From Dehalococcoidia bacterium (lineage in GTDB: Bacteria; Chloroflexota; Dehalococcoidia; SM23-28-2; RBG-16-64-32): a stretch of 64,000 nucleotides of DNA. Both the position numbers and the translations under genes were made by a program. Under the pieces are notes generated by a model. The model ran no database searches. It was not told the origin of the DNA and saw only the letters and a program-made list of their open reading frames with translations. The number at the start of each line of letters is the position of its first letter. Position 1 is the stretch's first letter. Shown piece after piece: positions 1,838-43,455 of this stretch. The stretch covers positions 1,816 through 65,815 of the forward strand of contig DAOUBD010000028.1 in NCBI GenBank assembly GCA_034432935.1. The letters are read 5' to 3'.

Positions 1838-2082
1838 CTAACATCCCTCCCTCGAACAACTGCTACACGGCGATGGCCGCCGGGCCAAGGCGCTCAGGCG
1901 CGCCTCCTTGCCTGATAATACAACGCAGCCGCGGGCCGCCGCGTTTCCCCTGGGGGCCATCCGGCCGGGCCGCCCGGCCCTACCCGCCCCCTTGACCCCC
2001 CCTGTTATCCTTTATGTGTGGCAGGAGGAGCCAGCCCCGGTGCTTCCCGCAAGGACCGGCCATCTCTCATCGGAGGACCGTC

Positions 2083-3201
2083 ATGATCTCACGCCAAGAC
2101 CTGGAACGCCTGGCTGCCTTCAAAAGCGATGACGGTGTGGTCAGCGCCTACGTCCGCATCGACCCCAAGTTGGTTTACGATCGCCAGGCCCACGCAGCCC
2201 AGTTCAAGGGCGCCGTCCGCGCCTTCCTGCGGTCCAACAAGAACGGCTGGCGGCAGGCCGTCCTGGAGCGCGAGAGCGGACGGATACTCAAGTACCTAGA
2301 AGACCAGCTACCAGCGGGACGGGGTCTCGCCGTCTTCGCCAGCGAGCCAGCCGGCCTGTGGGAGGTCATCTCCCTGGAGGTGCCCGTGCCGAGCTTCGTC
2401 GACGTGGGCACTACGCCCAGCATTGAGGTCTTGGCCCGCATCCTGGACGAATACCCGCGGCTGGCCATCGCCATCGTCCAGCGGGACGCCGCCCGCATCT
2501 ACCTCTCGGAGCAGCGGCGGGCCGAGGAGGAGGCCGCGATAGAGAGCGAGGTGCCCGGCCGGCACGATCAGGGTGGCTGGGCTCAGGCCCGCTTTCAACG
2601 CCACATCGAGGTCCACGTCCAGCGCCACCTCAAGGAGGCGGCGGACGAGCTGGAGAAGCTGTTCTACGCCCGGCCCTTCGCCGGCCTGGTCCTGGGCGGC
2701 TCCCCCGAAGCCGTGGACGAGCTGCTCGGACTCCTGCCCGGCCCCGTCGCCCGGCGCGTCGTCGGCACGGTGCCCGTGGACCTGAAACACGATCCCGAAG
2801 AGGCGATCCTGGAGCGGGCCCGCCAGGCGGGCGCCGAGGCGGAACGAAAAGCGGAGAGCGAACTGGTGGAGCGGGCCGTGAACGCCGCCGCCAGCGGCGG
2901 CCGGGGCGTCGCCGGCCTGCAAGAGACCCTCCAGGCCGTGGCCGAGGGTCGCGTCCACACCCTCCTCGTCGCCGACGGCTTCGCCGCCGAAGGGGCCTTC
3001 TGCCCCGCCTGTGGCTATCTGGCGGCGGGACCTGCGGAGAGGTGCCCCGCCTGCGGCTCCAGCGTCGAACCCGCGCCGGACGTGGTCGAGCGGGCGGTGG
3101 AGCGGGCCTTCCTAGCTGGCGCCCACATCGAGGCCGTCTTGGGCCCGGCCCGGGATAAACTTATGGGCCACGGCGGCCTCGCGGCCATCCTGCGCTACTG
3201 A
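2083..3201 (+). CDS. Bacterial eRF1-like (baeRF) family protein with C-terminal CPACG...CPACG zinc ribbon
   Basis: ATG at 2083 preceded by GGAGGA. eRF1/Dom34-like three-domain layout with a central 'RHDQGGWAQARFQRH' loop. C-terminal 'VHTLLV' block followed by a CxxC-x16-CxxC ribbon. Confidence 0.4.
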   Translation: MISRQDLERLAAFKSDDGVVSAYVRIDPKLVYDRQAHAAQFKGAVRAFLRSNKNGWRQAVLERESGRILKYLEDQLPAGRGLAVFASEPAGLWEVISLEVPVPSFVDVGTTPSIEVLARILDEYPRLAIAIVQRDAARIYLSEQRRAEEEAAIESEVPGRHDQGGWAQARFQRHIEVHVQRHLKEAADELEKLFYARPFAGLVLGGSPEAVDELLGLLPGPVARRVVGTVPVDLKHDPEEAILERARQAGAEAERKAESELVERAVNAAASGGRGVAGLQETLQAVAEGRVHTLLVADGFAAEGAFCPACGYLAAGPAERCPACGSSVEPAPDVVERAVERAFLAGAHIEAVLGPARDKLMGHGGLAAILRY

Positions 3202-5642: not shown

Positions 5643-7442
5643 CTACTGGGCCATGGCGTCGGGCCAGACGCCGACGGTGCCCAGGGTGGCGCCCTCCGGC
5701 TTAAGGGAGGCGTCGAACGATGCGCTCTGGCCGGGCCCCAGCACATTCGGGCTGGCGTAGGCGAACTTGCTGCGGAAGACGGCCCCATTGGCGTCGTAGA
5801 AGGCGAGGCAGGCCTTCACCAGCTTGTAGTTGGCGCCGGAGGCGTTGGTTATGGTTCCTGCGGCGTGGAAGTAGCCGACGAAGTCGGTGTAGGTGTTGGA
5901 CACCTGGGCCTGTAGGCCCTCCGGAGCAGGGACGAACGGCGGGTCAAAGAACTGGGCGACCTCCAACTCTACGCGATCCACGCTTCCCGCAGGCGAGAGG
6001 ACCTGTACCTCGAATGGTGATTGGCCTCCCGCGGGTAGGGTCATCAGGCAAGAGTAGCCGGCGCCCGTCTTGAGGAGCTCACCGCCAGGGCCGTATATGC
6101 TGGCTTCTACCCGCACCAGGCCAACGGGACGGTCACTTTCGTTGACGATCTCCCCGGCCGCCACCAGGACGCCGCCGGAATCCACGTGCCAGCCGGTGTT
6201 GCGCAGGGTGAGATGGGCGGGCTCGGGCGTGGGGCTCGGCGCCGGGGTGCCCGAAGAGGACGGCGCCGGGCTGGGGCCCGGGCTCCCGGCCGGGCCGATG
6301 GGCGGGCAGTCCGGCGGCTGGTCCACCGGCAGCCCAGCGGCAAAGCGGAGGATGGCCAGCGCGTCCACGGCGTCCACGATCCCGCTGCAATTCACATCGC
6401 CGAACAGCGGGTTGCCGGTGTCCAGCGCCGCGCACTCCGGCGGCTGCGCCACAGCCAGGCCGGCAGTGTGCCGGAGGACCGCCAGGGCGTCGACGGCGTC
6501 CACAGACCCATCACAGTTGACGTCCGAAACCGATGGCGGGCCAACCTGCCAATCCGGGTTGAAGCTGGCGTGGTCGGCGGTCAGGGCGTGAGCGCCGGAG
6601 CCATCGGCGTCCATAACGAAGACGTCGCTGGAGCCGAGGAGCAGGTCCACGGCGAAGGCGATCTTCGTGCCATCGGGCGACCAGTCTGGTGTGGCGTCAG
6701 GGTCCAAGACGCTGTTGGTGAGGTCCTCTTGCCCCGTGCCGTCGGCGTTCATCACCCAGATGTCCGTGCCGCTCGCTCCGCTACGGGCGAACACGATGCG
6801 GGTGCCGTCGGGAGACCATGAGGGATCGCCATCGTACCCTGGGTTGTCGGTCAGGGCGACGCGGTTGCTGCCGTCAGCGTCCATGACCATGATTTCGAAG
6901 TCGCCATCCTCGTTGCTGGCGAAGGCGATCTTGCTCCCGTCTGGCGAGAAGTCAGGGGAGGTGTCCACAGCGTGGCCTTGGCTTAGGTTTACCTGGTTGC
7001 TGCCGTCCGAGTCCATGATCCAGATCTCGTCGCCGCGGCGGAAGGCGATGGTCTGGCCGTCGGGGGACCAGGCGGGTCGCAAGTCGGGCGCCGGGTCGTC
7101 GGTGAGGCGGGTGACGTTGGCGCCATCGGCGTCCATGAGGTAGATCTCGCGGTTGCCGTCCCTCTCACTGACGAAGGCGATCTTGCTGCCGTCGGGGGAC
7201 CAGGCGGGATCGAAGTCGTTGGCCGGGTTATCGGTGAGGTTAGTCTCGCCGCCGCCGTCCTCGTTGATGACGAAGATGTCGCGCTGGCCGCTCAGGTCCC
7301 GCTCGAAGGCGATCTTGCCGTTGGCGCCGGGGAAAGTAGCGCCCGCAGGAGGGCTGGGGTTCAGGTATAGCGCTGCCAGCACCGCTGCGGCGCAGGCGGC
7401 AAGAATGACCGGAAGTAGATAACTCCTTCGGATCGCGGCCAT
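5643..7442 (-). CDS. Secreted multidomain protein: TolB-like beta-propeller, two Cys-containing dockerin-like repeats, Pro/Ser linker, unknown C-terminal domain
   Basis: Signal peptide. At least 8 PD40-type blades ('DPAWSPDGSKIAF', 'RPAWSPDGQTIAF'…). 'DVNCDGSVDAVDALAVLRHTAGL…PPEC' occurs twice. Linker 'GSPGPSPAPSSSGTPAPSPTPEP'. Confidence 0.6.
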   Translation of the reverse strand: MAAIRRSYLLPVILAACAAAVLAALYLNPSPPAGATFPGANGKIAFERDLSGQRDIFVINEDGGGETNLTDNPANDFDPAWSPDGSKIAFVSERDGNREIYLMDADGANVTRLTDDPAPDLRPAWSPDGQTIAFRRGDEIWIMDSDGSNQVNLSQGHAVDTSPDFSPDGSKIAFASNEDGDFEIMVMDADGSNRVALTDNPGYDGDPSWSPDGTRIVFARSGASGTDIWVMNADGTGQEDLTNSVLDPDATPDWSPDGTKIAFAVDLLLGSSDVFVMDADGSGAHALTADHASFNPDWQVGPPSVSDVNCDGSVDAVDALAVLRHTAGLAVAQPPECAALDTGNPLFGDVNCSGIVDAVDALAILRFAAGLPVDQPPDCPPIGPAGSPGPSPAPSSSGTPAPSPTPEPAHLTLRNTGWHVDSGGVLVAAGEIVNESDRPVGLVRVEASIYGPGGELLKTGAGYSCLMTLPAGGQSPFEVQVLSPAGSVDRVELEVAQFFDPPFVPAPEGLQAQVSNTYTDFVGYFHAAGTITNASGANYKLVKACLAFYDANGAVFRSKFAYASPNVLGPGQSASFDASLKPEGATLGTVGVWPDAMAQ

Positions 7443-11663: not shown

Positions 11664-14600
11664 CTACGCCGTCAACTGGCGATAGAGGGCGGTGATTCGG
11701 CTGGGCAGCGATTCGATATCTGGCACCACGGCGTACCCCACGTCTTGGCACATCTGCTTCAGATAGTCGTGGCCGTAGCGGTCCACCGTCAGGCAGAAGG
11801 GGGTCATTCCCTTCCGCTTGGCCTCCTGAAGGGCCATGTGGGTGTCGTGGATGGCGTAGTCCTTCTCCGTGCGGTCCCGGCCGTAGCCGTGGTCCTGCGG
11901 CCGCCCGTCCGAGACGAGGAAGAGTATGCGCACCTTGGCGTCTTGCTCCTCCAGCTTGTGGGTGGCGTGGCGGATAGCCGGCCCCATGCGGGTGGAGCGC
12001 ACGGGAGCGATCTTATCGATGCGCTTCTTGACCCGCTCGGAGAAGGCCTCGTGCAGGTCCTTGACCACGTAGAACTCCACGTTGTCCCGGCCGTAGCCGG
12101 AGAAGCCGTAGATGCCGTAGGCGTCGCCGATGGTCTCGAGGGCCTTGATGAGAAGGACGATGCTCTCCTTCTCCACATCGATGATCCGTTTGGGGGGCGT
12201 CAGCAGCTCCTGGGCCCGGCGCGCCATCCACCAGGAGAAGTAGCGCCGCGGGTCGTCATCGAAGTCGTCCTGGGCGTAGCGCCGCTCGTGCTTGGCGATC
12301 TCCTCATCAGTGGAGGCGCTCATGTCCAAAAGGAAGGCGACGGCGACGTCCCGTTCGATCTTGTTGCGGCGCCAGTAGATCTTATCGGTGGGGGTGTGCC
12401 CAGCGCGGCGGTCGACGGCGTAGTCCATGAGGGCGTCGAAGTCTATCTCCTCGCCGTCCAGGAGGCGTTTGATCTTGCGGAACATCTCTGGCCGCAGCAG
12501 CTCGAACTGGCGGCGTGTCTGGCCCACCAACGAGGCGTAGCGGGAGAGGGTGTCGTCGAAGTACTGGGCGTTGCCCTCGCCCACAGGGTACTCCACGATG
12601 CGGCACCAGCGCGGGCGGTAGTCGCCGGCCCGGAAGTCCCACTCGTCGTAGTAGTAGTACTTCGGCTCCACCGGCAGCTCGTGCTCGTCGTCGGCCGTGC
12701 TCATGCCCGTTACCGGCTGGCCGTCCTTAACCGGCACCGGCTGTTTTTTGGGCTTGTCCTGCTGGGCGTTCAGCTCCTTGATCAGATTGGTCAGAAACAG
12801 CTCCGAGGACTGGGTGAGGTCCGCCTCCGCCATGTCCGAGATGGTGATCTCGACGCTCTTCTCCAGCAACTGCTTCAGCTGCTCGGGGGACAGCGGCGAG
12901 ACGGGCCCCTTCTGTCCGCTCTCCTTGCGCAACTTCATTAGGAGCTGCACCGTCTCTGGCTTGAAGTCGCCCCGGAAGTCCACCGGCGGCGGGCTCTCGT
13001 AAGGCACCTCCTCGCCCTCGGGAAACTGGAGGTCCATGTCCTTGCCAAAGGCGTCGGCGCTCATCGGCATGGTCTGGAGGGCCCCCTCGTCGAGCTCTGA
13101 CCAGTCCTCCATAAGGTCCGGCGCCATGTTCTTGATCTGCTCTGCCAGCCGGTAGAGGCGGATGGTGGCCTCAGCCGAGTCCTCCACCAAGGCCTGCGGC
13201 TGGCGCAAGGTAGCCAGGATGCCGATGGCCTGCTCCATGGCCGGCATCAAGGCGAGGGGCCACACGATTCGGTCCAGGCCGTCGAGGCTGGCGCGCACCA
13301 GGTTCTCGACGAAGGCCTGGCGCAAGGGCATCTGCTCTACGTCGGGCCGGCGCCCCAGCTCCAGCTCCTTGCGGGCGCCGTAGGCCCTCCGGATCCCCGC
13401 GTATTCCCTCTCGACGAGGACGTCCACCCGGGCATCCTCGCACACGGCGAAGATGTCGGCCGCCAGGCGGCGATCTGGAAACAGGTCGAAGAAGCGCTCC
13501 ATGTCGGTCAGGGGCCCCGCACCGGGATCTTGGCCCTGGGGCGGCGCATCGGCTGCACCATCGGAGTCGCTGGCCAGCGGCGGCGCCGCCTGGCGCTCCG
13601 CCTCCAGGCTGGCCCTGCCGTTGGGGAAGATGTTGCCCTCCCGCTCGAAGGAGAACTGGAAGGTGCCAAACTCCAGATGCCCCGTCTGGTGCGTGCAGTA
13701 GACCTTGTACACCATGAAGTTAGCTTCCTTATCCGGGGCTTCCTCTACGTATGGCGGCAGGAAGACGGCCGTGCCCTCCGTGGAGGGCGCCTCCGTCTCC
13801 ACCCAGCCGATGCCCTTCTCCGCCAGCGCCTCCGAGGAGTGCACCGCCATCTCGAAGCCGGTGAGGGCCTTGCAGTACATGCGCAAGATATCGGCTACCC
13901 GGCTCAGCTCCACGCGTGATGAGAGGGAGTCCAGCACCTCCTCGCCGCGGGCCGACTCCAGGCGGAAGTAGGCCTCGCCGCCCTCCGGGCTGCTGTCCAA
14001 GAGGGCGCTGCCCTCCCGGTGCCAATCGGTGATCGCCTCCAGCGGTATCCGGTCCAACACCTTGGCCGCCGTCTTCAGAAACTCCATGGCGGCCAGGGAG
14101 GAGCGAGGCGCCAGGTCCTCGGCCAGGGAGAGGAGGAGGCCGTGGGAATCTGGGTCGACCTGGGCGAGGGCTCGGGCCGCCTCGGCGAAGAAGGCGAAGG
14201 CCTGGCGGCCCTCGGTCCGCGCCAGTTCCCCCGCCAGGGCAAGGAAACGCCCCCGCTCCAGGGGATGCAGGTTGGACAGGAGCGAGGGACCCTTCTCCAA
14301 ATAGGACCGCGCATCAGCCCAACCCGTCGTGGCCAAGGCCTCGGCAAAACGCAGGAACTCCCCCCGGTCGGGCCCTTCCAGGGGCCGCAGGGTATGGGGC
14401 GCGATCCCCAGGCAATGGGACGCCAGGTCGTAAGAACGGTCGCAGAGGGCGTCCACGAAACGCACCAGCACCCGTACCTCCTCCACTGTGAGGGCCGAGA
14501 AGAGGGCAGGGCTAGTGTCGAAGAATTGCACCGCTAGGGAGGCGGAGCGCCACGTCCCCTTGTAAAGGGAACGGCCCAGGGCCACCCAGTCCGCTATCCG

Positions 14601-14999
14601 TGCCGCGCCCAGGGTTGGCACCGTCTCCGCCGACGCCCGGAAGTAGGAGGTGGCCAGCGCGGAAGAAAGCTCCGCCAACTCCCGGCCAAGCTGGGACCAG
14701 CGGCGAAAGGCGGCCGTCCCCAACATCGGCAGAATCTGGGGAGTCACACGGAAATACTCCGTGGCGGCCTCCCATGAGCGCCACGATTGGCGGGCCAGTT
14801 CTAGGCCGTCTTCGGCCCAGGCCGCCAGCTCGCCATCCGTCACCTGGTCAGCGATTACCTCAGCCGTCCGGCGGAATTCGCCGGCGAGGCTGGTGGAGAA
14901 GGAGGACAACGCCTTCTCGTAGTGAGCGTAGATCTTGCGGCGTTCGGAGGCAGTCATGCCTGGTCCTGGGTCCCAAGGCCGTTGCGGAGGGCCAGCCAC
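11664..14999 (-). CDS. Large VWA-domain protein (CbbO/NorD-like), 1111 aa
   Basis: C-terminal VWA with MIDAS 'LLDMSASTD' and 'LFLVSDGRPQD'. N-terminal ~750 aa of repeated helical units. Lies downstream of a CbbQ/NorQ-type ATPase. Start is ambiguous: GTG at 14999 or ATG at 14957. Confidence 0.6.
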   Translation of the reverse strand: MAGPPQRPWDPGPGMTASERRKIYAHYEKALSSFSTSLAGEFRRTAEVIADQVTDGELAAWAEDGLELARQSWRSWEAATEYFRVTPQILPMLGTAAFRRWSQLGRELAELSSALATSYFRASAETVPTLGAARIADWVALGRSLYKGTWRSASLAVQFFDTSPALFSALTVEEVRVLVRFVDALCDRSYDLASHCLGIAPHTLRPLEGPDRGEFLRFAEALATTGWADARSYLEKGPSLLSNLHPLERGRFLALAGELARTEGRQAFAFFAEAARALAQVDPDSHGLLLSLAEDLAPRSSLAAMEFLKTAAKVLDRIPLEAITDWHREGSALLDSSPEGGEAYFRLESARGEEVLDSLSSRVELSRVADILRMYCKALTGFEMAVHSSEALAEKGIGWVETEAPSTEGTAVFLPPYVEEAPDKEANFMVYKVYCTHQTGHLEFGTFQFSFEREGNIFPNGRASLEAERQAAPPLASDSDGAADAPPQGQDPGAGPLTDMERFFDLFPDRRLAADIFAVCEDARVDVLVEREYAGIRRAYGARKELELGRRPDVEQMPLRQAFVENLVRASLDGLDRIVWPLALMPAMEQAIGILATLRQPQALVEDSAEATIRLYRLAEQIKNMAPDLMEDWSELDEGALQTMPMSADAFGKDMDLQFPEGEEVPYESPPPVDFRGDFKPETVQLLMKLRKESGQKGPVSPLSPEQLKQLLEKSVEITISDMAEADLTQSSELFLTNLIKELNAQQDKPKKQPVPVKDGQPVTGMSTADDEHELPVEPKYYYYDEWDFRAGDYRPRWCRIVEYPVGEGNAQYFDDTLSRYASLVGQTRRQFELLRPEMFRKIKRLLDGEEIDFDALMDYAVDRRAGHTPTDKIYWRRNKIERDVAVAFLLDMSASTDEEIAKHERRYAQDDFDDDPRRYFSWWMARRAQELLTPPKRIIDVEKESIVLLIKALETIGDAYGIYGFSGYGRDNVEFYVVKDLHEAFSERVKKRIDKIAPVRSTRMGPAIRHATHKLEEQDAKVRILFLVSDGRPQDHGYGRDRTEKDYAIHDTHMALQEAKRKGMTPFCLTVDRYGHDYLKQMCQDVGYAVVPDIESLPSRITALYRQLTA

Positions 15000-15167
15000 G
15001 CCCCTCCCGCTCGTGCTGAGCCTGCCGAAACATGTGCGGGACGCGATGCCCGCCCTTCGAGAACCTCAGGGCGAGCAAAAAAGAGCCCCAGCCCTTCGAC
15101 AACCACAACCTCCGGGCGAGCGGGCAGCCACGGCCGGGCCGTGGCCAGCGATTTCACGACACGTTGG

Positions 15168-16049
15168 CTACTCAAAGATGGAGGACACGACCTCCTCGAT
15201 GCTGCGCTGTACATCGTGGTCGTCCGTCAGGGCCCAGACCACCGCCACCTGGCAGGCCCGGCGAGGCGGGATGCCCTCGTGGATCAGCTTGCCGGCATAG
15301 ATCAGCAGGCGCGTGCTGACGCCCTCCGCTAGGCCGTGCTCCTTCAGGTGGCGCACCTTCTCGCCCAGCTTGGCCAAGTCCATGGCCACGTTCTCCGATA
15401 CCTGGCTCTCGTGGGCTATGATCTTGGCCTCCAGATCCCGCGGCGGGTAACCGAACTCCAGGGCCATGAAACGCTGCCGCGTGCTGTGCTTGAGGTCCTT
15501 CAGCGCGCTCTGGTAGCCCGGGTTGTAGGAGATGACCAGCAGGAAGCCGTCCCTGGCCTCCACAATCTGCCCTAGTTTCTCGATGGGCAGGATCCTGCGG
15601 TGGTCCGTGAGCGGGTGGATCAGGACGGTGGTGTCCTTGCGGGCCTCTACCACCTCATCGAGATAGCAGATGGCCCCGGCCTTCACCGCCCGGGTGAGGG
15701 GACCGTCGACCCAGCGGGTGCTGTCTCCCTCTAGGAGGTACCGGCCCACCAGGTCCGAGGCCGTCAGGTCTTCGTGACAGGCCACGGTGACCAGGGGCCT
15801 GCCGTGCTCCACGGCGCCAGAGCCCGTGACATCCCGGATAACGCTGACGGGGCGCCCCAGCTTGTACGCCATGTATTCGATGAAGCGCGTCTTGCCGCAG
15901 CCCGTGGGGCCCTTAAAGAGAACGGGGATCTTTTGGGCGTAGGCTGCCTCGAAGAGCTCCACTTCGTCCCTAACGGGGATGTAGAAGGGCTCCGAGGTTA
16001 CGACGTACTCCTCGATGGCGTACTCCCGGTATGTCGGTTCGGTGGTCAT
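15168..16049 (-). CDS. CbbQ/NirQ/NorQ/GvpN-family MoxR-type AAA+ ATPase
   Basis: Walker A 'GPTGCGKT', Walker B 'ICYLDEV', family-typical N-terminus '[15 protein letters not shown]'. Confidence 0.8.
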
Positions 16050-16186: not shown

Positions 16187-16798
16187 TCAGGACGTCTGTC
16201 CCAGCCGCTCTTGGAGCTTCCGCCACTCCTCGACAGTCCGCCGCCTGGTGTCCTCCAGCTGGCCGCTCGTGTCGATGACGACCCGCGACCGCCGGATGCG
16301 CTCCTCATCGCTCATCTGGGCCCTGACGCGCTCCAGGACGTGCTCCAGCGGCAGGCCGCTGCGCTCAGCCGCCCTGCGCGCGGCGACCTCGGGCGGGGCC
16401 ACGGTGACCCAGACCTCATCGGCCAGGTCATCCCATCCAGCATCGAAGAGGAGCGCGGCCTCCAGGACGGCCACTTCTACGCCGGCCCGGGCCAGCTCCG
16501 CCAGCTTCTCCCGCATCATCCCCTTCATGCGGGGATGGACGATCCTGTTCAAGCGCCTCAACTTGCGGGAGTCGGCGAAGACGGCGGCGCCCAGCTTCTT
16601 GCGGTCGATGGTCCCGTCCTCGGCGAGGACGCTGCGGCCGAAGGAATCGACTATCTCCTGCCAGGCGGGGCGCCCAGGCTGATACACCTCATGCCCCACC
16701 AGGTCAGCATTGAGAACGGTCGCCCCCAGCTCCTCTAACACCTTGGCAACCGTGGACTTGCCGCTGCCGATGCCGCCCGTGAGACCGATAACGTACAA
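16187..16798 (-). CDS. coaE: Dephospho-CoA kinase
   Basis: 'IGLTGGIGSGKST' P-loop at N-terminus; TTG start. Confidence 0.85.
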   Translation of the reverse strand: MYVIGLTGGIGSGKSTVAKVLEELGATVLNADLVGHEVYQPGRPAWQEIVDSFGRSVLAEDGTIDRKKLGAAVFADSRKLRRLNRIVHPRMKGMMREKLAELARAGVEVAVLEAALLFDAGWDDLADEVWVTVAPPEVAARRAAERSGLPLEHVLERVRAQMSDEERIRRSRVVIDTSGQLEDTRRRTVEEWRKLQERLGQTS

Positions 16799-16938
16799 GA
16801 GAGGATTCCTGCCGTAACCTGCGCCACCGCCAGCGCCGCGGCAAACGTGAGGGATTGCCCGGGGCGCCGCGCCCCCATTCTAGCGACAGCCCGGGCGGGG
16901 GGTCAAACCGCCGAACCCGATGGCTCCGCGGGCGCCCT

Positions 16939-18039
16939 CTAGCCCAGGGCGCCGCCGGACCAGCGGCGCACATCGCCGCGAGAGTAGCGGAAGGCCCGGA
17001 ACACCCAGTTGTTGGGACCCAAAAGCGGCGTTTCGGCGAAGTACGGGCTGATGTACTCCCAGACGACCCGCCGGTCCGGCGTCACCTCGAAGATCCTGCC
17101 AGCGCATCCCTCACAGATGAGGGTGTTACCGTTCGGCAGCCGCTGGGCCCCCGAGATGTATGGGCTGAAGAAGCTCTGCAAGGGCAGATCCCTGTACTCC
17201 CAGACCGTGCGCTTCGTGCCGCGGTCGATCTCCGCCACCCGCGAGTAAGCGAGGGGGGAGTTCTCCCGGTGCACGCCGTTGTCGAAGACGAGGACGTTGC
17301 CGTTGTCCAGCACCTGAGGGTCGTGCTGCTGGGCCAGGGCCGGCGGGCCCAGCTTCCAGACGAAATCGCCACTCGCGCGGTCGATGATGGCGACCGTGCT
17401 GATGTTGCGGAAGCTGACCATCACGCCGCCCTCCGGGGTCTCCAATACGGTATTGCCGTGGGTCCATTCCTCTCGCCATTCGTGGGGCCCCAGCCGGTCA
17501 TTCACCGGGTCGAGGTGCTCGTAGGCGTGCCACTCCCAAAGCACCTCGCCGCCCTTGGTGACCTCCAAGATGCGGTCGGCCCACATCCCGCTGTGCTCGG
17601 TGCCGGGCAGGCCGCCTTGCACACGCTGAGCGATCTCTTCTGGCACCCGCTCGATGGTCAAGAGCAGGACTGTGCCACGACCGGTGAGCCGGGCGTCGTG
17701 ATGATGGTCCGGGTGCTCCAGCTCCCACAGGACGTTTCCTTCCCAGTCCACTTCCATGACGATGCCGCCCTTGAAGAGCGGCCAAGTGGGGAACCTGGGG
17801 CTGGCATCCGGTGTCTTGCCGCAGTAAAAGAGGTGGCCATCCGGCAAGAGGCGGCCGTAATCGCCGGGAGGATAGGGCATGCGCCACTGGTGGGCGACGT
17901 TGCCCTCCATGTCGATGAAGAGCACCGTGCCGTCGCCCATCATGGGCGCGAAGAGGGTATAGCCATCGAAGGCGGCGCCCCGCTCCCAGCCAATGAGCCC
18001 GGTGCCGCGGCGGCGCAGCGTTACCTGGTCTATGGCCAC
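16939..18039 (-). CDS. Arylsulfotransferase (ASST)-family beta-propeller protein
   Basis: Repeated 'DNGNVLVFDNG', 'LPNGNTLI' and 'WEY/WEW' propeller motifs; no signal peptide. Confidence 0.4.
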   Translation of the reverse strand: MAIDQVTLRRRGTGLIGWERGAAFDGYTLFAPMMGDGTVLFIDMEGNVAHQWRMPYPPGDYGRLLPDGHLFYCGKTPDASPRFPTWPLFKGGIVMEVDWEGNVLWELEHPDHHHDARLTGRGTVLLLTIERVPEEIAQRVQGGLPGTEHSGMWADRILEVTKGGEVLWEWHAYEHLDPVNDRLGPHEWREEWTHGNTVLETPEGGVMVSFRNISTVAIIDRASGDFVWKLGPPALAQQHDPQVLDNGNVLVFDNGVHRENSPLAYSRVAEIDRGTKRTVWEYRDLPLQSFFSPYISGAQRLPNGNTLICEGCAGRIFEVTPDRRVVWEYISPYFAETPLLGPNNWVFRAFRYSRGDVRRWSGGALG

Positions 18040-20078: not shown

Positions 20079-21584
20079 CTACAGCGTCGACCCGATCCCC
20101 GGGCAGGAAGGGACGACCGGATTGGAGAGGCCGGCCGCGTAGCGCAGGATGCGCAGGGCGTCCACGGCATCCACGGCGCCATCACAATTGACGTCCCCGT
20201 AGGCGAAGCCTAAGCCGGGGCGAACGTCGCCCGGATCGGGGCAAGAGGGCACGGTGAAGGGCAGGCCTGCCACGTGCCGCAGGACGAACAGGGCGTCCAC
20301 CGCATCAACGGCTTTGTCGCAGTTGACGTCGCCTTGCAGGCCTTGGGGCGGCGGCACGAAAGACTGCGCCTCGAAGGCCCCGATATCGCACCGGGGCGTG
20401 CCATCGCCATCGCCGTCCCGGGGCCGGGGCAGGCCCCGCTGGTCTACGGCGGGACATTGCGCGTCGTCGCCGCTGTCGAGGGCCGGGCTGCCCGGCAGGA
20501 GGGCATGGGTCGGCGTTGGGCCTCCGTTGTCGGCAAGGGGGCCCAGAACGTTCCCGGCGTTAGCGATATCGCCCGGGCCGGATAGTTGACAGGAGCCATC
20601 GCTGTCCAGGTTGTGCCCCAGGGAGACGGCTGGCGTGCCATCACAGTCTTCAGGGGAGTTGTCGGCGATGATAATGTTCACAACGTTGAGACTGGCGCTG
20701 CACGTATCACACACGAAGTTCAAGATTCCGCCGCCGCGTTCGGCGCTATTGCCAACGATGGTCACGTTAGTTAGGGTGACGTCGCCGTTTACGTTATCAA
20801 GGCCTGCGCCCAAGCGGGCGGTATTGCCGCTGATGGTGCTGTTGGTAATCGAGAGGGCGTTGCCCGTCACGGAGATGCCACCGCCGCTGCGCGATCCGCC
20901 GCTCTCTGACGTGACCTTGTTGCCGCTGATGGTGCTCTCTTCTATCGTGACATCCCCGTAGTTCGAGCGGATGCCGCCGCCCTCTGGGTTGGTGCCAGAC
21001 GGGTTGTCCACCGTCTGGTTACTGGCTACGACGGCGCGCCGCAGGTGCAACGTTCCAAAGTTGTAGATGCCGCCGCCGGCGTTGGCTACGTTGCCTATGA
21101 CGGAGATGTCCTCAAGGGTGAGCGTCCCATTGTTGTAGATGCCGCCGCCCAGTCCCGTGGTAGCGCCGTTGGCGATCGTTACACCCTGGATGACGACTAC
21201 ACCATCCGCCGTGAGGACGCGGTCGATGCCGGCGGCATCGATGATGGTGGCGCCGGGGCCAGCGCCGGTAATGGTCAGGTCCTCCCCGATGTTGAGGTCG
21301 CCGGTCGCGTCGAAGTATTCATCGGCGCCCGGTATGGTGAGGGTGTAGGTGCCGGCTGGCAGGGTGATGTCATCGGCGCCCGGGAGCGCGTTGGCCTCCA
21401 TGATGGCGGCGCGCAGGGTGCACTGGCCGCCGGCGCTGGCGCAGACGCCATCGCCAGGATTGGCATCGATGGCATCGGCCGTGGAGTTGACGGTAAAGCC
21501 AGCGCCAGCGGCAGGCTGTGGTCCCGGGAATGCCAAGGCCGCCGCCAGCAGGAGAACGACGGTGACGATAACATGTACGTACAT
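20079..21584 (-). CDS. Secreted right-handed parallel beta-helix protein with two C-terminal Cys-containing dockerin-like repeats
   Basis: Signal peptide. Repeated 'GGGIYN/NxGGGI' beta-helix turns. 'DVNCDKAVDAVDALFVLRHVAGL…SCP' and 'DVNCDGAVDAVDALRILRYAAGL…SCP'. Confidence 0.6.
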   Translation of the reverse strand: MYVHVIVTVVLLLAAALAFPGPQPAAGAGFTVNSTADAIDANPGDGVCASAGGQCTLRAAIMEANALPGADDITLPAGTYTLTIPGADEYFDATGDLNIGEDLTITGAGPGATIIDAAGIDRVLTADGVVVIQGVTIANGATTGLGGGIYNNGTLTLEDISVIGNVANAGGGIYNFGTLHLRRAVVASNQTVDNPSGTNPEGGGIRSNYGDVTIEESTISGNKVTSESGGSRSGGGISVTGNALSITNSTISGNTARLGAGLDNVNGDVTLTNVTIVGNSAERGGGILNFVCDTCSASLNVVNIIIADNSPEDCDGTPAVSLGHNLDSDGSCQLSGPGDIANAGNVLGPLADNGGPTPTHALLPGSPALDSGDDAQCPAVDQRGLPRPRDGDGDGTPRCDIGAFEAQSFVPPPQGLQGDVNCDKAVDAVDALFVLRHVAGLPFTVPSCPDPGDVRPGLGFAYGDVNCDGAVDAVDALRILRYAAGLSNPVVPSCPGIGSTL

Positions 21585-21601: not shown

Positions 21602-24298
21602 CTACGGCGAGCTCTGCCAAACGCCCCCGCCGAGTGGCCAGCGCAGCGTCGCTATCTCGTTGCTCCGCAGCGGGAGGGATACCTCGCCGCCTGCCGCCCT
21701 TAGCGGCGACGGATCCTCCTCGTTCAGGTTCACCCGCTGTGGCTCCCCCGCCGCCAGCGGGAAACGTATGCTCGCCTGCACCGGGCGGTCCAGGATGTTG
21801 TAGACCCGCAGCACCACCCCCTCCGCATCCTCCGACAACTTCAGGGCCGAGGGTACGACGCCGGCCGGCCCTAGTTCCATCAGAGTGTCTTCTAGTGGCA
21901 GCCGCCCGGCGCCCCTGGTGGTGCGCACGGCTCGTAGCGGCCGGAGAAAGCGGTGGGCCTCGGCGTAGGCCTGCTCCCAGCCGCCCTGGTGCGGGATGAT
22001 GCAGTAGTGGAAGCGCCAGCGCCCCTTCATCTGGGCGCCGGGGGTCATGGGCGCCGGGCCGGCGTGACCCTTGCGCTCGTCCAGGTCGCCACGGGAAAGC
22101 CAGCCGACGCAGCGGAGAAGGGTCAAGGCGATGGTGACGCCGCCGTCATCTTCCGCCATCGCCTCGTATTCGGGCAGGCCGCGGTTCGCCAGCATGAAGC
22201 CGCGCTCGCCATCGCTGATGTCGACGAAGGCCTTTTGGGGGTGAAAGCCGACTGGGGCTTCCAGCCAAGACCAATCGGGCTCCGGCACCGCGAGGGGCCG
22301 CTGTACGACGCCGAAGTGCTGCTCGGCCCACGAGCGGTCGCAGGCGATGCCAGTGGGAAAGTGGACCCGCAGGCGGTGGTCTTCCGCCTGGTTATCCACC
22401 TCGGTCTCGATCTCCACTCGGGGCACGCCGGGATAGAGGCTGATGCGACTGGTGATCTCGCAGCCCACCCGCTGGGGAGAGCGGCCGTGCCGGTCCGGGG
22501 TTAGGCGGGCGGGCAGAGCGTAGGTCTGGCGCACCTCCAGCGTCCAGCGGGCGGGGCCATTCTCCAGCACGCGAATGGAGGCGGGCTGGGCCGGCCGGCC
22601 GATGATCTCGTCGCGCCGGGGCCGAGAGTAGGTGTACTCATCGCCGCGGTCGCCGCCGTCGACAAACCGGTTCAGGCCCCCGTAGGTCAACCCGGAGGCC
22701 TTGTCCTCCACCGTAACCGCGCCCGTGGACGGATCGGCGGTCACCCGGAAGTATTCGTTCTCTATCTCCGGCGGTCCGGCCGTCTGGGGGCGCGGCGCTG
22801 CCCCCTGGGCGGCCGCTCCCGCTTCGCCGTACTCCACGCGATACGCCCGGTACCCCAGGCCGGGCAGGTCAGAGGCTACGAAACCGGCCATAACGCGCTC
22901 GCGGGGGTCCAAAGGCGAATGGATGTTGCGCCTGACGATCTGAAGGGGCAGGGCGCGGCCGCCCGGGTCTACCAGGCGGGCGGGCAGCCGGCCTTGATCC
23001 ACCGGCAGGCGCACCGTACAAAAGTCGCAACGGGGGCCCGGCTCCGGGTTGAAGACCACTACGCAGCCCTCGCCCGGCGGCGACGCCAGTTCGGCGATGC
23101 GGTGGAGGGCCTCGTTCAGCACCGCCTCGGCGGCCTGCTGGCAGCGCTGGAAACGCAGGCGCACGTCGTCGTACACAGCGTCTACTGAGCAGCCAGTCAC
23201 CGAGTCGTGGGGGCCGTTCTGGAGGAGCATCCGCCAGGCCTGGCGCAGGAGTCCCGCGTCAGATCGCAGCCTCTCCTTCTCCGCCGCCGGATCGGCGCCT
23301 AGGCGCCGCTCGATCAAGGCTCGCCAGGCCGCCGCCGGTTCGGCGTAGCGGGCCAGCAGGTCTTCGCATTCCTGGTACCTCTGTTTCAACCACATGCGGG
23401 TGGAGAGCACCCCAGGCAAGATGTTGGACCGCTTGCTGTTGCGAAACTCTCCGGCCAGGCGCGGCAGGCGGTTGATATCCTCCCCCAGCTCTCGCCGGAT
23501 GGCGGCTGCCAGTTGGGGATAGTTGCCATGGATCATCTCGGCGTCCTCTAGCATCGCGTTCGCCGCCCGGATGACGCGGGAGAGCCCCGTGTGGGCCGGC
23601 AGGTGGTCCGTGCCGTTGGGCACCAGGACGTAGCGGGTGGTGGCCAGAGGCTCCAACAGGCGCCGGACGTTGTTCAGGGCTGCCCGAAGCTGCTCCGGCT
23701 CTTCAGGCATTACGGGCAGCATGCCGTATCCGAAGGGGAAGTGCAGCACGAGAACCTCCGAGCCATCCGGGGCGGCCCAGCGGAACTCCGAGGTGGTGGC
23801 CTCCGGTCCAACCCCCCGCCAGATAAGGGCGGTGTCTATGCCGAAGCCTCGCAAGATGGCCGGCAGGTGGGCGATGTGCCCGAAGGCGTCCGGAGCGTAC
23901 CCCACCATCATGGCCCCGCCGTACTCCCGGGCCGAGCGGATGCCGGTCATCAGGTTGCGGATGTGGGCCTCGCCGCCGATGAGGAACTCGTCGGGCAGGA
24001 CGTAGTTGGGCCCGATGAGCAGGCGTCCCTCCCGCACCAGGCGTTCGATCTCCGGCCGGCGGTCGGGCCGCACCTCCAGGTAATCGTCCAGGGGGACGGT
24101 CTGCCCGTCCAGTACGAAGTAGCGGAACTCAGGGTCGCGGGCGAACAGGTCCAAGAGCGCGTCCATCATGCGCACGAGCCGCACCCGAAACTCCTCGAAG
24201 GGCTGGTACCACTCCCGGTCCCAGTGGGTGTGGGAGACGACCACCAGAACGCGGCGCACGCCGGCCTCGGCCGCCTGGGACCTCTGCGGTCCGCTCAT
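21602..24298 (-). CDS. Glycoside hydrolase family 38 alpha-mannosidase
   Basis: N-terminal 'VVSHTHWDREW' GH38 catalytic motif; 898-aa GH38 architecture. Confidence 0.85.
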   Translation of the reverse strand: MSGPQRSQAAEAGVRRVLVVVSHTHWDREWYQPFEEFRVRLVRMMDALLDLFARDPEFRYFVLDGQTVPLDDYLEVRPDRRPEIERLVREGRLLIGPNYVLPDEFLIGGEAHIRNLMTGIRSAREYGGAMMVGYAPDAFGHIAHLPAILRGFGIDTALIWRGVGPEATTSEFRWAAPDGSEVLVLHFPFGYGMLPVMPEEPEQLRAALNNVRRLLEPLATTRYVLVPNGTDHLPAHTGLSRVIRAANAMLEDAEMIHGNYPQLAAAIRRELGEDINRLPRLAGEFRNSKRSNILPGVLSTRMWLKQRYQECEDLLARYAEPAAAWRALIERRLGADPAAEKERLRSDAGLLRQAWRMLLQNGPHDSVTGCSVDAVYDDVRLRFQRCQQAAEAVLNEALHRIAELASPPGEGCVVVFNPEPGPRCDFCTVRLPVDQGRLPARLVDPGGRALPLQIVRRNIHSPLDPRERVMAGFVASDLPGLGYRAYRVEYGEAGAAAQGAAPRPQTAGPPEIENEYFRVTADPSTGAVTVEDKASGLTYGGLNRFVDGGDRGDEYTYSRPRRDEIIGRPAQPASIRVLENGPARWTLEVRQTYALPARLTPDRHGRSPQRVGCEITSRISLYPGVPRVEIETEVDNQAEDHRLRVHFPTGIACDRSWAEQHFGVVQRPLAVPEPDWSWLEAPVGFHPQKAFVDISDGERGFMLANRGLPEYEAMAEDDGGVTIALTLLRCVGWLSRGDLDERKGHAGPAPMTPGAQMKGRWRFHYCIIPHQGGWEQAYAEAHRFLRPLRAVRTTRGAGRLPLEDTLMELGPAGVVPSALKLSEDAEGVVLRVYNILDRPVQASIRFPLAAGEPQRVNLNEEDPSPLRAAGGEVSLPLRSNEIATLRWPLGGGVWQSSP

Positions 24299-27899: not shown

Positions 27900-27989
27900 G
27901 AGGCTCTGCCTCTTCCGCTGTAACCGCTGAGGCCTGTGGGCGTCTTACCATTCAGGACTGCACTCTGAAGTCAGTCCGGCTTCGAGCTT

Positions 27990-28080
27990 CGACAAGGGCA
28001 AACCGTTCCGAAAGGGCGGGGCGCAAAGCCACGGGCCTAAACCCCGGCGCTAAACGGGGCAAGGCCGCCGGGCCGCCGAA
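27990..28080 (+). promoter_or_regulatory. c-di-GMP-I (GEMM) riboswitch-like leader
   Basis: 'GGGCAAACCGUUCCGAAAGGGCGGGGCGCAAAGCCACGGGCCUAAACC' aligns almost base-for-base with the Vc2 aptamer core 'GGGCAAACCAUUCGAAAGAGUGGGACGCAAAGCCUCCGGCCUAAACC'. It has a GNRA-capped P2 (CCGUUC-GAAA-GGGCGG) and a P3 hairpin (CCCCG…CGGGG), and sits 85 bp upstream of a GGDEF gene. Confidence 0.6.
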
Positions 28081-28164
28081 GGCGGATTGAAGCTAAACGC
28101 ATACCGGGACGCTGGCCCTTCGGAGCTGCAGCCGGAGAGACGCTACAGATAGACAGGTGGAAGC

Positions 28165-29022
28165 ATGCGAGCTCCGGGGCCCCACGGGCGAGAAACTATA
28201 GAGGAGGAGATCGAACGGGAAGAGCGCGCCGTTGGCCGCGTGGTCAAGGCTGGCGGCGGGGCCGTCACAATCACCACCCTGGCCGCCCTGGGTCTCCTGG
28301 TGATGAGCGCGGACCACGCCTGGCAGTACCTGACGCTGGCCATGCTCGGCGGAGTGCCCCTGCTGTATGCCTTCGGTACGACAGCCGTCACCCGCCGCAT
28401 GCAAAAGTCGCTCCTGGAGCGGTACCAGGATCAGATACGGAGGCGCTTGGCTGAGCTGGAGGAGACGGCCTCACGGGATGAACTAACAGGGCTGCGCAAC
28501 CGGCGCTATTTCTACCAGGTGCTGGCGGCAGAGATCGAGCGCTGCCAGAGCAGCAAGGAGCCGTTGGCCCTGATCATGATGGACATGGACAAGCTCAAGA
28601 ACATCAACGACGAGTACGGTCACCGGGTGGGCGATGCCGTCATCGCCGGCCTGGGCCGGGCCATCGCCACCCTCACCAGGGCCACCGACGTCGCGGCCCG
28701 GCTGGGGGGCGACGAGTTCGGCATCGTCATGCCGGGCACGGACAAGCGGGGCGCCTTCACCCTGGCCCAACGCCTCATGGACTACCTGGAGAGGACCCCC
28801 ATGTACGAAGAAGGCGCCACCCGCGTCATGGCCAGCGTCTCCATCGGCGTCTCCGGCTTCCCCTGGGGAGGCGAGTCCGTGGAGGAGCTGATCCAGTGGG
28901 CAGACGCCGATATGTACGCCAACAAAGTCTCGCGCCGCCTGCCCCCCGTTATGGCCAAGGCCGAGGAAGGCCGCGAGACCCGCCGTCTGCCCGACGCCGA
29001 CGACTTCATAACAGGGTTCTGA
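28165..29022 (+). CDS. Membrane-anchored GGDEF diguanylate cyclase
   Basis: TM N-terminus; 'RLGGDEFGIV' active site and I-site 'RxxD' context. Confidence 0.8.
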   Translation: MRAPGPHGRETIEEEIEREERAVGRVVKAGGGAVTITTLAALGLLVMSADHAWQYLTLAMLGGVPLLYAFGTTAVTRRMQKSLLERYQDQIRRRLAELEETASRDELTGLRNRRYFYQVLAAEIERCQSSKEPLALIMMDMDKLKNINDEYGHRVGDAVIAGLGRAIATLTRATDVAARLGGDEFGIVMPGTDKRGAFTLAQRLMDYLERTPMYEEGATRVMASVSIGVSGFPWGGESVEELIQWADADMYANKVSRRLPPVMAKAEEGRETRRLPDADDFITGF

Positions 29023-29939
29023 TGGCAACGGAACGCGACCCCAGGCCGCTGCGCCCAACAACAGGAGGAGAGCCCCCGCTCATGAAGCAGCCTAAGCATC
29101 CCACGAAGGGACGCCCCAAGCTTGTCAGCGCCGCCATCTGGCTGGCCGCCGCCCTCGCGGCCGGAGCGCTGGCGGCCCTGGCCTATTTCGTCAGCCCCAT
29201 CCTCACTCTGGTCATCGTCTGCTTCCTCCTCTGGTTCACCCTCTGGCGCCTCATCCGTAACTTCTACCGGCAACAGGCGTCCTTCCACCGTCAGCTGGAA
29301 GAGATGAGGGCCAGCTACGAGTCCATCATCGGCACCCTGAGCGGCGCCCTGGGCCTCGTGGACAGCGTAACGGCCCGGCAGGCCCAGCGGATGTCTCACC
29401 TGGCCTCCGTAGTCGCCTGGCAGATGGGGCTGCGCAAGGAAGACGTCCGCCGCATCGAGCAGGCGGCCATCCTCCACGATATCGGCAAGATGGGCATCGG
29501 GGAGAACGTTCTCTCCAAGGCGGGCCCCCTGACCCCCAGCGAGTGGGAGGCGATGAAACGCCACCCCAAGCTGGGCTTCCAGGTGCTGCACGGCATCGGC
29601 TTCCTGCGGGACGTCGCCGAGATCGTCTACGCGCACCACGAACGCTGGGATGGAGGCGGCTACCCGAGGGGCCTTTGCGGCGAGGAGATACCGCTGGGTT
29701 CGCGCATCTTCGCCGTTATCGACGCCTATCAGGCCATGACTTCGGACCGCCCCTACCGCCGCGCCATGAGCCATGCTGAGGCCGTGGAGGAGCTGGTGCG
29801 CAACGCCGGCAGCCAGTTCGACCCCGGCGTCGTCCAGGCCTTTCTGGAAGCAGAGAGGCGTGGCCTCATCTCGCCTGAGGCCGCTGCCCCGCCGGAGGCA
29901 GCGGCCCCATCGGGCGCCACGGGAGTCGCCCTCGAATGA
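29022..29939 (+). CDS. HD-GYP phosphodiesterase with 2 TM N-terminus
   Basis: 'HDIGKMGI' and 'HHERWDGGGYPRGL'. ATG overlaps the GGDEF TGA (TGATG). Confidence 0.75.
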   Translation: MATERDPRPLRPTTGGEPPLMKQPKHPTKGRPKLVSAAIWLAAALAAGALAALAYFVSPILTLVIVCFLLWFTLWRLIRNFYRQQASFHRQLEEMRASYESIIGTLSGALGLVDSVTARQAQRMSHLASVVAWQMGLRKEDVRRIEQAAILHDIGKMGIGENVLSKAGPLTPSEWEAMKRHPKLGFQVLHGIGFLRDVAEIVYAHHERWDGGGYPRGLCGEEIPLGSRIFAVIDAYQAMTSDRPYRRAMSHAEAVEELVRNAGSQFDPGVVQAFLEAERRGLISPEAAAPPEAAAPSGATGVALE

Positions 29940-43352: not shown

Positions 43353-43455
43353 GGTGTGTGGGCCAGGCACGAAAGGGGTGGCGCTCCGGCAGCCGCCACG
43401 CCCCGGACGCCGCCGCCCCCTTGACCCCCAGGGATCCGTCCGCCACCCTTGTGCC

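Follow-up and report, generated by a model that had tools for sequence, protein, structure and literature searches.

A CbbQ/NorQ-type ATPase and its giant VWA adaptor, conserved across Dehalococcoidia next to coaE: a putative remodelling machine with a possible link to coenzyme A

The subject of this analysis is a pair of genes in a 64-kb stretch of DNA (67% GC) from a Dehalococcoidia bacterium (assembly GCA_034432935.1, contig DAOUBD010000028.1), the whole of which is called the window. Both genes, like every feature of the pair and of coaE located below, are on the minus strand: one open reading frame (ORF) at 15168-16049 encodes a CbbQ/NorQ-type MoxR AAA+ ATPase of 293 amino acids (aa), here called Q, and the other, at 11664-14999, encodes a giant protein that bears a domain of the von Willebrand factor A type (VWA), here called the adaptor. 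The codon-position GC of both ORFs follows the pattern typical of real genes, and the base composition of the pair is the same as that of the flanking DNA. A preliminary description of the window had recognised both ORFs and given the VWA protein 1111 aa; the ORF does have this length when counted from the GTG at 14999, but the product is probably a protein of 1097 aa from the ATG at 14957 (gene 11664-14957), because an identical database protein (P0001) has 1097 aa and the orthologues align from that ATG. Residue numbers of the adaptor are in the 1097-aa numbering unless stated otherwise.

Upstream of Q is coaE (16187-16798), which encodes dephospho-coenzyme A (CoA) kinase (Pfam CoaE, 2e-50) and comfortably passes the equivalog threshold of NCBIfam TIGR00152 (166.9 bits; cut-off 65.6). 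Between Q and the adaptor gene is a spacer of 210 nucleotides (14958-15167) with no gene inside, at the position occupied in other clades by a Nudix or metallophosphoesterase gene. The window has no terminator-like site in the intervals from coaE to Q and from Q to the adaptor gene. A promoter-like site upstream of coaE (TTGACC-18-TAGAAT, 16877-16906, 10 of 12 consensus matches) could conceivably start a coaE-Q-VWA transcript; 0.8 such sites would be expected by chance, against the one found. An Rfam scan of the whole window gave no match within or adjoining the pair.

On every point by which membership can be judged from sequence, Q is a member of the CbbQ/NirQ/NorQ subfamily of MoxR AAA+ ATPases. 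Its matches to Pfam AAA_5 (2.6e-30) and CbbQ_C (1.6e-31) are both far above the cut-offs, and it aligns end to end with CbbQ (PDB 5c3c, 2.2e-102; 6l1q, 7e-100) and NorQ (9qhd, 2e-91), with 58-60% identity to these solved proteins (58% to NorQ). The Walker A motif GPTGCGKT, by which the preliminary description had assigned Q to the MoxR class, lies at 15888-15911 and Walker B (ICYLDE) at 15654-15671. Q also shares the elements that couple NorQ to NorD, its partner in the FeB-insertion chaperone of the nitric oxide reductase (NOR) cNOR (PDB 9qh4-9qhg): the helix-2-insert motif GRxLLxxxxT (15717-15746; defined as GRxLL/IxxxxT in PMC13036017), which in NorQ grips the finger of NorD, and the post-sensor-1 segment RRILPI. 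The cysteines in GPTGCGKT and ACHED match the redox-sensitive pair Cys46/Cys68 of PdNorQ, which forms an inhibitory disulfide (PMC13036017); in some Q orthologues the Walker A cysteine is replaced by alanine or threonine.

In an alignment that comprised Q, 18 of its orthologues at related loci, CbbQ and NorQ, the family proteins were 65-86% identical to each other and 54-61% identical to CbbQ and to NorQ, while CbbQ and NorQ are 52-54% identical. All 19 family members have 18-24 additional residues of variable sequence where the Walker A helix is joined to strand beta2 (18 aa in Q, 15798-15851), an insertion that is present neither in CbbQ (5c3c, 6l1q) nor in NorQ (9qhd). From these identities and the insertion, rather than from a tree, we read the Q family as a probable third branch outside the CbbQ and NorQ clades.

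The adaptor was modelled with AlphaFold2 (AF2) from an alignment of 36 sequences, with a mean predicted local distance difference test (pLDDT) of 77.9 and a predicted template modelling score (pTM) of 0.50; the models of single domains appear trustworthy, the mutual arrangement of the domains does not. The C-terminal third (residues 766-1097, 11664-12662) is NorD-like and consists of a YDEWDFRAxDY block (YxEWDxRxxxY in the form common to NorD and the adaptor), a predicted finger, the VWA domain and a tail. Residues ~760-1097 align with residues 341-645 of NorD (phmmer 7.8e-39 for 9qhd_G, 1.9e-49 with the family profile). The finger or shaft segment (residues ~820-870, 12348-12500) is predicted from alignment to the region of PdNorD that contains the finger (403-448): residues 774-901 in the 1111-aa numbering match NorD 341-465 by phmmer with an independent E-value of 2.7e-10, and the segment contains invariant residues. 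Its AF2 pLDDT is below 50, a low confidence that would be expected of an element that orders only inside the ring.

The intact MIDAS (metal-ion-dependent adhesion site) that had been reported for the VWA domain is borne out by the NorD alignment, in which DMSAS (DxSxS; MIDAS loop 1, 12312-12326) and the conserved T and D correspond residue for residue to NorD of PDB 9qhd and 9qh6; D878, S880, S882, T989 and D1017 are invariant among the 36 sequences. Pfam gives this domain only a weak match to VWA_2 (E 0.002, under the cut-off). The MIDAS loop is followed by a family-specific acidic insertion of 40 aa (residues 883-922, 12192-12311; TDEEI...DDFDDDPR...WW...), which is found neither in NorD nor in a shorter archaeal homologue (P0358). 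The C-terminal tail LYRQLTA (11667-11687), in which L1091, Y1092, R1093 and L1095 are invariant, is equivalent to the NorD tail ...IYRQLVA (YRQL(T/V)A in common), which binds NorQ's post-sensor-1 loop and the last two residues of which cannot be lost without abolishing the complex (PMC13036017). Foldseek with the full model retrieved the VWA domain of NorD (9qh6_G, 3.9e-13) and the MIDAS domain of MDN1 (1e-5). The likening of the pair to CbbQ-CbbO and NorQ-NorD in the preliminary description thus holds on both sides, Q being similarly close to both ATPases and its partner a NorD-like VWA adaptor.

The adaptor also proved to be longer than CbbO and NorD, as had been stated, by 330-460 aa. The repetitive helical structure attributed to its long N-terminal region is real in the first part of it, but the N-terminal 750 aa are not one repeat region. 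Residues 1-346 are all-helical in the AF2 model, with a pLDDT of ~90 and a regular periodicity, and residues 41-346 (13920-14837) are predicted to form an alpha-solenoid of eight helical hairpin repeats of ~37 aa; hidden Markov models of single repeats match other repeats in register (R3 to R1, 9.5e-9; R1 and R2 in both directions, ~2e-4; R5 to R6, 1.3e-3). Residues 350-625 (13083-13910) form a globular middle domain in the model, and residues 626-765 (12663-13082) an acidic linker, mostly modelled at low confidence, with three short helices and a strongly conserved block, PYESPxxVDFRGDFKPE.

Searches with these regions found little. Foldseek with the full model gave no significant match for the N-terminal two thirds, only designed helical repeats below significance; searches of PDB sequences and profiles with the N-terminal and middle regions gave no match; and Pfam, NCBIfam and PADLOC returned the sub-threshold VWA_2 alone for the whole adaptor. 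NorD's N-terminal domain (~240 aa) shows no detectable relationship to the adaptor's first ~770 aa: searches by phmmer and by profile against full-length NorD chains, with E-values up to 10 admitted, gave no match to their N-terminal part. In the Foldseek library NorD is represented by chains of 217-286 residues, apparently for the most part the VWA region. The whole adaptor appears to be under strong purifying selection, with 56-88% identity maintained across ~1090 aa and numerous polar positions of the middle domain invariant (among them H423, Q424, E429, R496, E507, D508, R510, R537, E551 and D593).

The middle domain modelled alone by AF2 reached a pLDDT of 84.5 and a pTM of 0.84. It starts with a helix and a sheet of three strands, continues with a long helix that bears the sequence HQTGHLE and ends with seven further helices, in agreement with the published description of CobT_N, which has a helix, a three-stranded sheet and eight helices and is said to resemble peptidase M48C (bioRxiv 10.64898/2026.07.21.739949). 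The only probable structural matches of the domain were phage CobT/VWFA proteins in BFVD (Foldseek E 1.9e-3 to 5.7e-2, query TM-score 0.41-0.51); against the PDB Foldseek found no match (best E 3.3), and no peptidase. HQTGHLE (13671-13691), in the first long helix, is a degenerate zincin motif, which reads HQxx[H/R/Y]xE in all Dehalococcoidia members and HE[VI]GH in 109 of 120 archaeal homologues. The bacterial domain would therefore be derived from a metallopeptidase-like fold and have lost the catalytic glutamate, and many Dehalococcoidia lineages appear to have lost a metal-ligand histidine of the motif as well. It is probable, though not established, that the middle domain is CobT_N-like, with the M48C-like, zincin-derived topology. 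Between the two groups glutamate and glutamine have changed places, archaeal HExxHxQ (or R/K at the last position) corresponding to Dehalococcoidia HQxx[H/R/Y]xE with an invariant last glutamate.

The HE[VI]GH motif of the archaeal homologues, together with the invariant H423, E429, E507, D508, R510 and D593 of the family, raises the question whether the adaptor is itself a hydrolase or protease, regulated by ATP and acting through this zincin-derived domain. The window protein has HQTGH and so lacks the HExxH motif of a metallopeptidase, the catalytic glutamate is a glutamine in every Dehalococcoidia member and the second histidine is often arginine or tyrosine. With no PDB peptidase among the Foldseek matches, and with the comparable CobT_N being a docking domain and not an enzyme (bioRxiv 10.64898/2026.07.21.739949), an enzymatic adaptor is very unlikely.

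The archaeal homologues belong to Methanosarcinaceae (Methanolobus, Methanomethylovorans and Methanococcoides, methylotrophic methanogens) and are paralogues of the whole adaptor architecture, 770-1170 aa in length, with several per genome in varied gene contexts. In hhalign comparisons, archaeal forms of 779 aa cover family positions 287-1092 (probability 100%, E 1.7e-87), and a 1160-aa protein of M. psychrophilus covers positions 14-1092 (probability 100%, E 5.9e-88). An AAA_5+CbbQ_C ATPase of 274-276 aa is encoded directly upstream of the adaptor gene at L166, L168, L169 and L170, four of six archaeal loci that were inspected; for the two forms of ~779 aa (L085 and L167) no adjacent ATPase is on record. 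Besides their canonical zincin motif, the archaeal proteins differ from the Dehalococcoidia family in having no post-MIDAS insertion and no coaE or Nudix partner. One Methanococcoides pair is embedded in the order mtmC (B12-binding)-mtmB-x-Q-VWA-DUF2284, and another archaeal pair is 2.6 kb from a COX1-FixO-cytochrome c fusion; such differing contexts fit a superfamily whose members serve different clients. The archaeal adaptor paralogues (L085 and L166-L170) are all annotated as 'NorD'. Methanogens are not known to be denitrifiers with a NOR.

The likeness to CobT might mean that the pair is a chelatase-like or corrinoid-handling system of the CobST type, with a third, substrate-binding partner encoded elsewhere. 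In its predicted layout the adaptor resembles CobT, with a zincin-like 'M48C' N-domain, a disordered linker and a shaft-bearing VWA domain, the phage 'CobT'/VWFA proteins are the sole probable structural matches of the middle domain, and the Methanococcoides paralogue within the mtmC-mtmB order has a corrinoid context. However, that context is seen in one archaeal locus only, neither Pfam CobT nor CobT_C matches the adaptor, and structurally the resemblance is weak (best E 1.9e-3). The zincin-like domain is preceded by a fused solenoid of eight repeats, and the motor is of the CbbQ/NorQ type with a CbbQ_C lid. Neither the window nor the recurrent neighbour clusters of related loci showed a CobN- or ChlH-like gene, although the flanks of these loci were not scanned specifically for one. 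A CobST-type function is accordingly considered distinctly unlikely.

Hundreds of full-length homologues of the adaptor, ~1070-1130 aa long and 56-88% identical, were found, all in metagenome-assembled genomes of Chloroflexota/Dehalococcoidia, where pipelines label the proteins 'hypothetical' or 'NorD'. A scan of one genome per GTDB species confirmed at least 586 relatives in the class Dehalococcoidia, including those of the cultured strain Tepidiforma flava YIM 72310 (locus L080; NZ_CP115149.1, at about 2.27-2.30 Mb) and of Candidatus Amarobacter; 548 further relatives came from a scan of metagenomes that started from a SAR202-type member. With the N-terminal 756 aa as query, an exhaustive HMMER search of 1.84 billion cluster representatives retrieved 1094 clusters at E<=1e-3 (213 at E<=1e-30), with full-length members down to 27% identity; the named distant members are SAR202 and other marine Dehalococcoidia, the taxon labels being the depositors' own. 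One candidate, in which the repeat region follows PAS-HisKA (P0188), was judged a probable gene-call fusion. The pair thus appears to be one orthologue group, deeply conserved and nearly class-wide in Dehalococcoidia, and not a local oddity; the preliminary description was right that no known client is nearby. Searches of the available literature found no description of the adaptor family or of a link between CoA and MoxR/VWA systems.

MoxR-vWA pairs occur in defence-type systems, and Q has weak, P-loop-only PADLOC matches to the IetA and LmuB models (E 2e-4 to 1e-2). If the pair were a conflict or anti-phage module, however, its distribution would be surprising: it is single-copy-like and vertically conserved, with class-wide synteny with housekeeping genes, and its base composition is that of its surroundings. 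The adaptor belongs to no PADLOC family and Q has no full-length PADLOC match, so that a role in defence is extremely unlikely.

The gene neighbourhood was compared in 165 related loci, a sample that consists of the best-scoring 80 loci per scan and is not random. Neighbouring ORFs were called by a rule of our own (GC1>GC2 and high GC3, which reproduces the Pfam-supported genes of the window) and clustered by BLAST; tblastn with reference proteins served as a second method. In 112 loci at least 2.6 kb of upstream sequence was available, and 97 of these have the order coaE-Q-(x)-VWA on one strand. The coaE gene, which had been listed as one of several neighbours, is therefore no incidental one; it opens a conserved cassette, and the gene order suggests that coaE, Q and the adaptor gene are co-transcribed throughout the class. 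The genomes that bear the cassette span 29-72% GC, and the gene order has therefore outlasted very deep divergence. Three more loci have Q-Nudix-adaptor without coaE, and seven have an adaptor gene without an adjacent Q; the latter may be paralogues.

In the 97 complete cassettes the slot x between Q and the adaptor gene holds a Nudix gene (39), a metallophosphoesterase gene (33) or nothing (25, in the clade of the window). Among the loci compared, coaE is almost always present and the hydrolase slot filled in about two thirds. The Nudix gene is found in marine/SAR202-type clades (within L083-L165), and a phosphodiesterase of ~200 aa of the Metallophos_2/YfcE type in Tepidiformales-type clades including T. 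flava (within L024-L081). The best NCBIfam match of the Nudix protein is CoA pyrophosphatase (2.9e-37 and 128 bits for one copy), and a NuCoA-like motif, e.g., LVLQVRSQKLKHHPGEIGFPGG, was recognised in 56 of the 64 copies. One locus has an acetate-CoA ligase alpha-like gene inserted additionally. As Nudix and YfcE-type enzymes are not homologous, their occurrence at the same operon position looks like non-orthologous displacement, from which it is argued that the hydrolase activity belongs to the system. A remnant or displaced copy of either gene was sought in the window by tblastn without success (one spurious match, E 0.008).

Two further genes recur near the cassette. A cinA gene (MoCF_biosynth + CinA) is convergent downstream in ~43 loci; in the window cinA is 28 kb away (43267-44700). 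A His_Phos_1 histidine phosphatase gene is found 3' of the adaptor gene, on the same strand, in 13 loci of the Tepidiformaceae type (within L048-L081).

The other neighbours named in the preliminary description, an arylsulfotransferase (ASST)-like protein and the electron-transfer flavoprotein (ETF) subunits EtfA and EtfB, were confirmed along with CoaE by the Pfam scan. The genes etfB-etfA, often with a gene for an iron-sulfur (FeS)/CCG (EtfD-like) oxidoreductase, are further upstream in the window and in many terrestrial clades, most often with an opposite-strand gene of the DinB family between them and the cassette. In the window the gene between etfA and coaE is that of the ASST-like beta-propeller (16939-18039, minus strand), of which no homologue was found at this position in the surveyed related loci; it is therefore probably a lineage-specific insertion.

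The proximity of etfB-etfA and often of the FeS/CCG gene, just upstream of coaE at many loci of several clades, the window included, offers candidate clients for a different kind of machine, a chaperone that, like NorQD, CoxDE or RavA-ViaA, would supply an enzyme of respiration or electron transfer with its metal or cofactor, with the CoA genes as bystanders. The client would be the ETF-linked FeS/CCG oxidoreductase or else a heme-copper oxidase, of which the archaeal pair near the COX1-FixO-cytochrome c fusion is suggestive; moreover, all characterised relatives act on metallo-enzymes. Yet the etf genes are split from the cassette by the DinB-family gene in many loci and, in the window, by the gene of the ASST-like protein. 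At the marine loci, for which flanks of 6 kb were used, etf genes were detected upstream only at L162, yet the cassette is retained. Beside the pair no gene for a respiratory enzyme is conserved. Because the link is not universal, a client encoded by etfBA or the FeS/CCG gene is kept as an alternative and not as the leading explanation; such a chaperone has an outside chance of being the right one.

The pair might also be a canonical CbbQO or NorQD system encoded apart from its RuBisCO or NO reductase. Q is as close to CbbQ and NorQ as stated above, the VWA third of the adaptor is closest to NorD, public pipelines name members 'NorD' and 'NorQ', and at one orphan-paralogue locus (L002) a COX1/NnrS-type gene is ~8 kb away. 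As the preliminary description had observed, neither client is encoded in the window: among ~50 larger ORFs that cover the 64 kb, no Pfam match to RuBisCO or to the heme-copper/NOR family was found. Nor are RuBisCO or NOR genes among the recurrent neighbour clusters of the 165 loci, although the flanks were not scanned specifically for cbb or nor; the conserved partners are coaE and a hydrolase. In addition, the N-terminal ~770 aa of the adaptor are unrelated by sequence or profile to the NorD N-domain, the family Q proteins form their own group with an insertion foreign to CbbQ and NorQ, and the family, with its species mostly heterotrophic Dehalococcoidia, pervades lineages like Tepidiforma, in which no pathway of carbon fixation has been reported (PMC10284905). 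For these reasons RuBisCO and NOR are unlikely clients, and a displaced canonical system is decidedly improbable.

The comparison with the two canonical systems also bears on nomenclature. The adaptor differs from NorD in its first two thirds and in the acidic insertion after the MIDAS loop, as Q does from NorQ in its 18-aa insertion, and the operon partners in this family are coaE and a hydrolase, with no norCB; because neither a NorD N-domain nor a nor context was found, the adaptor is not NorD in the strict sense. With CbbO of the RuBisCO activase CbbQ-CbbO it would share the 6:1 motor-adaptor logic, a C-terminal MIDAS-bearing VWA domain and a long, poorly characterised N-terminal region, which in CbbO comprises ~550 poorly conserved aa without homologues (PMC4660213). 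The adaptor is, however, ~330 aa longer than CbbO and has no RuBisCO genes nearby, in the window or among the recurrent neighbour clusters, and is not to be called CbbO.

The explanation that we prefer, and to which we give slightly better than an even chance, is that the pair is a motor-adaptor remodelling machine of the NorQD/CbbQO/CobST kind, the client of which is neither RuBisCO nor NOR and may be linked to CoA or nucleotides. By analogy with these systems, remodelling of a client other than the established ones, as proposed in the preliminary description, still seems the best reading. The coupling elements of NorD and NorQ are conserved in the pair, and a mechanism with the finger in the pore and the linker under stretch is therefore likely. 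By analogy with NorQD (PMC13036017), the finger of one adaptor would plug the pore of a Q hexamer and its tail would bind the post-sensor-1 loop. In the aerobic cobaltochelatase CobS-CobT-CobN, the docking site of CobT_N is the small AAA+ subdomain of CobS; CobT_N also touches the client CobN, which lies between the adaptor's N- and C-domains (bioRxiv 10.64898/2026.07.21.739949); the CobT_N-like middle domain may likewise dock on the CbbQ_C small subdomain of one Q protomer. The client would then be clamped between the MIDAS face, reshaped by the 40-aa acidic insertion, and an N-terminal module of middle domain and solenoid. Hand-over-hand ATP hydrolysis would rotate the VWA domain against the anchored N-domain, stretch the linker and force the client open, which would let a bound ligand or cofactor leave or enter. 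In such adaptors, according to the literature, the variable N-terminal regions set client specificity (PMC9976466), and the two elements peculiar to this family, a solenoid of eight repeats and the acidic insertion after the MIDAS loop, are at positions that by analogy would be expected to face the client.

As to what is exchanged, the gene order suggests that the machine may expel or replace a CoA or nucleotide ligand of the client, which the co-encoded hydrolase would dispose of. Within the overall explanation, this link of the remodelling step to CoA or a nucleotide has roughly even chances. One option would be that a tightly bound or damaged CoA species is freed, that the hydrolase destroys it and that CoaE replenishes CoA; in the clade of the window itself the operon has no hydrolase gene.

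Several observations weigh against the preferred explanation, either as a whole or in its parts. The machine is argued from sequence and models and the role of CoA from gene order, and coaE, a housekeeping gene, could share an operon with the pair for reasons of expression. The slot is without a hydrolase in 25 of the 112 loci, including that of the window, and no substitute is present elsewhere in the 64 kb. One Nudix copy, at 128 bits, falls just short of the curated cut-off of 134 for CoA pyrophosphatase and a second copy scores 83 bits, and the metallophosphoesterase has no known substrate. Also against it are the seven adaptor genes without an adjacent Q and the archaeal relatives, which are in unrelated contexts with neither coaE nor Nudix nearby. 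In the structural argument, the full-length AF2 model leaves the inter-domain geometry unreliable (pTM 0.50) and the finger at low confidence, and the likeness of the middle domain to CobT_N is weak by Foldseek (best E 1.9e-3, with a high root-mean-square deviation) and absent at the sequence level.

A more specific version of the preferred explanation is speculative and rather unlikely as it stands: that the system is a 'CoA activase' or repair module, in which the AAA+/VWA machine prises open CoA-dependent enzymes that are trapped with dead-end or damaged CoA, for example an oxidised, persulfidated or dephospho form. The CoA-type Nudix enzyme, or the YfcE-type phosphodiesterase that displaced it, would destroy the released inhibitor, and CoaE would restore the pool. 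If true, such a module would be the functional analogue, for a nucleotide cofactor, of RuBisCO activase together with its inhibitor phosphatase.

Other features of the window concern different subjects. A c-di-GMP-I-GGC riboswitch aptamer (Rfam, 59.9 bits, gathering score 59) at 27988-28081 on the plus strand is directly followed on its 3' side by a GGDEF diguanylate cyclase ORF (28165-29022, plus strand) and then by an HD_5 (HD-GYP-like) ORF (28896-29939); the order suggests a sensor of the cyclic di-GMP (c-di-GMP) type ahead of enzymes that make and break c-di-GMP. Type I dockerin domains, unusual for a Chloroflexota genome, are found in two proteins (5643-7442 and 20079-21584, both minus strand), one of which also has PD40 beta-propeller repeats; the gene at 20079-21584 adjoins a GH38 alpha-mannosidase gene (21602-24298). 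Three further proteins are a 395-aa eRF1-like member of the 'baeRF family 10 / acVLRF1' release-factor group (2014-3201, plus strand, 8.4e-31), a 767-aa protein in which CopC, CopD and, at the C-terminus, a cytochrome c domain are fused (52898-55201, plus strand) and a 464-aa fusion of a GNAT acetyltransferase with a pyridoxal phosphate-dependent (PALP) enzyme (32758-34152, minus strand).

Few clients have been established for machines of the CbbQ/NorQ/CobS type, among them RuBisCO, cNOR and cobaltochelatase. The pair described here would add a third deeply conserved branch with a composite adaptor, present in abundant SAR202 lineages of the ocean and in at least one cultured strain, and its operon points away from both clients known for the CbbQ and NorQ branches and towards CoA metabolism. 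Tepidiforma flava could therefore serve as a tractable system in which to find a new class of client. The adaptor may also link the NorD and CobT types through a shared docking domain of zincin origin. Finally, since no NOR genes accompany these genes, the labels 'NorD' and 'NorQ' that they bear in public databases are probably wrong, and could inflate inferences of denitrification for the lineages concerned.

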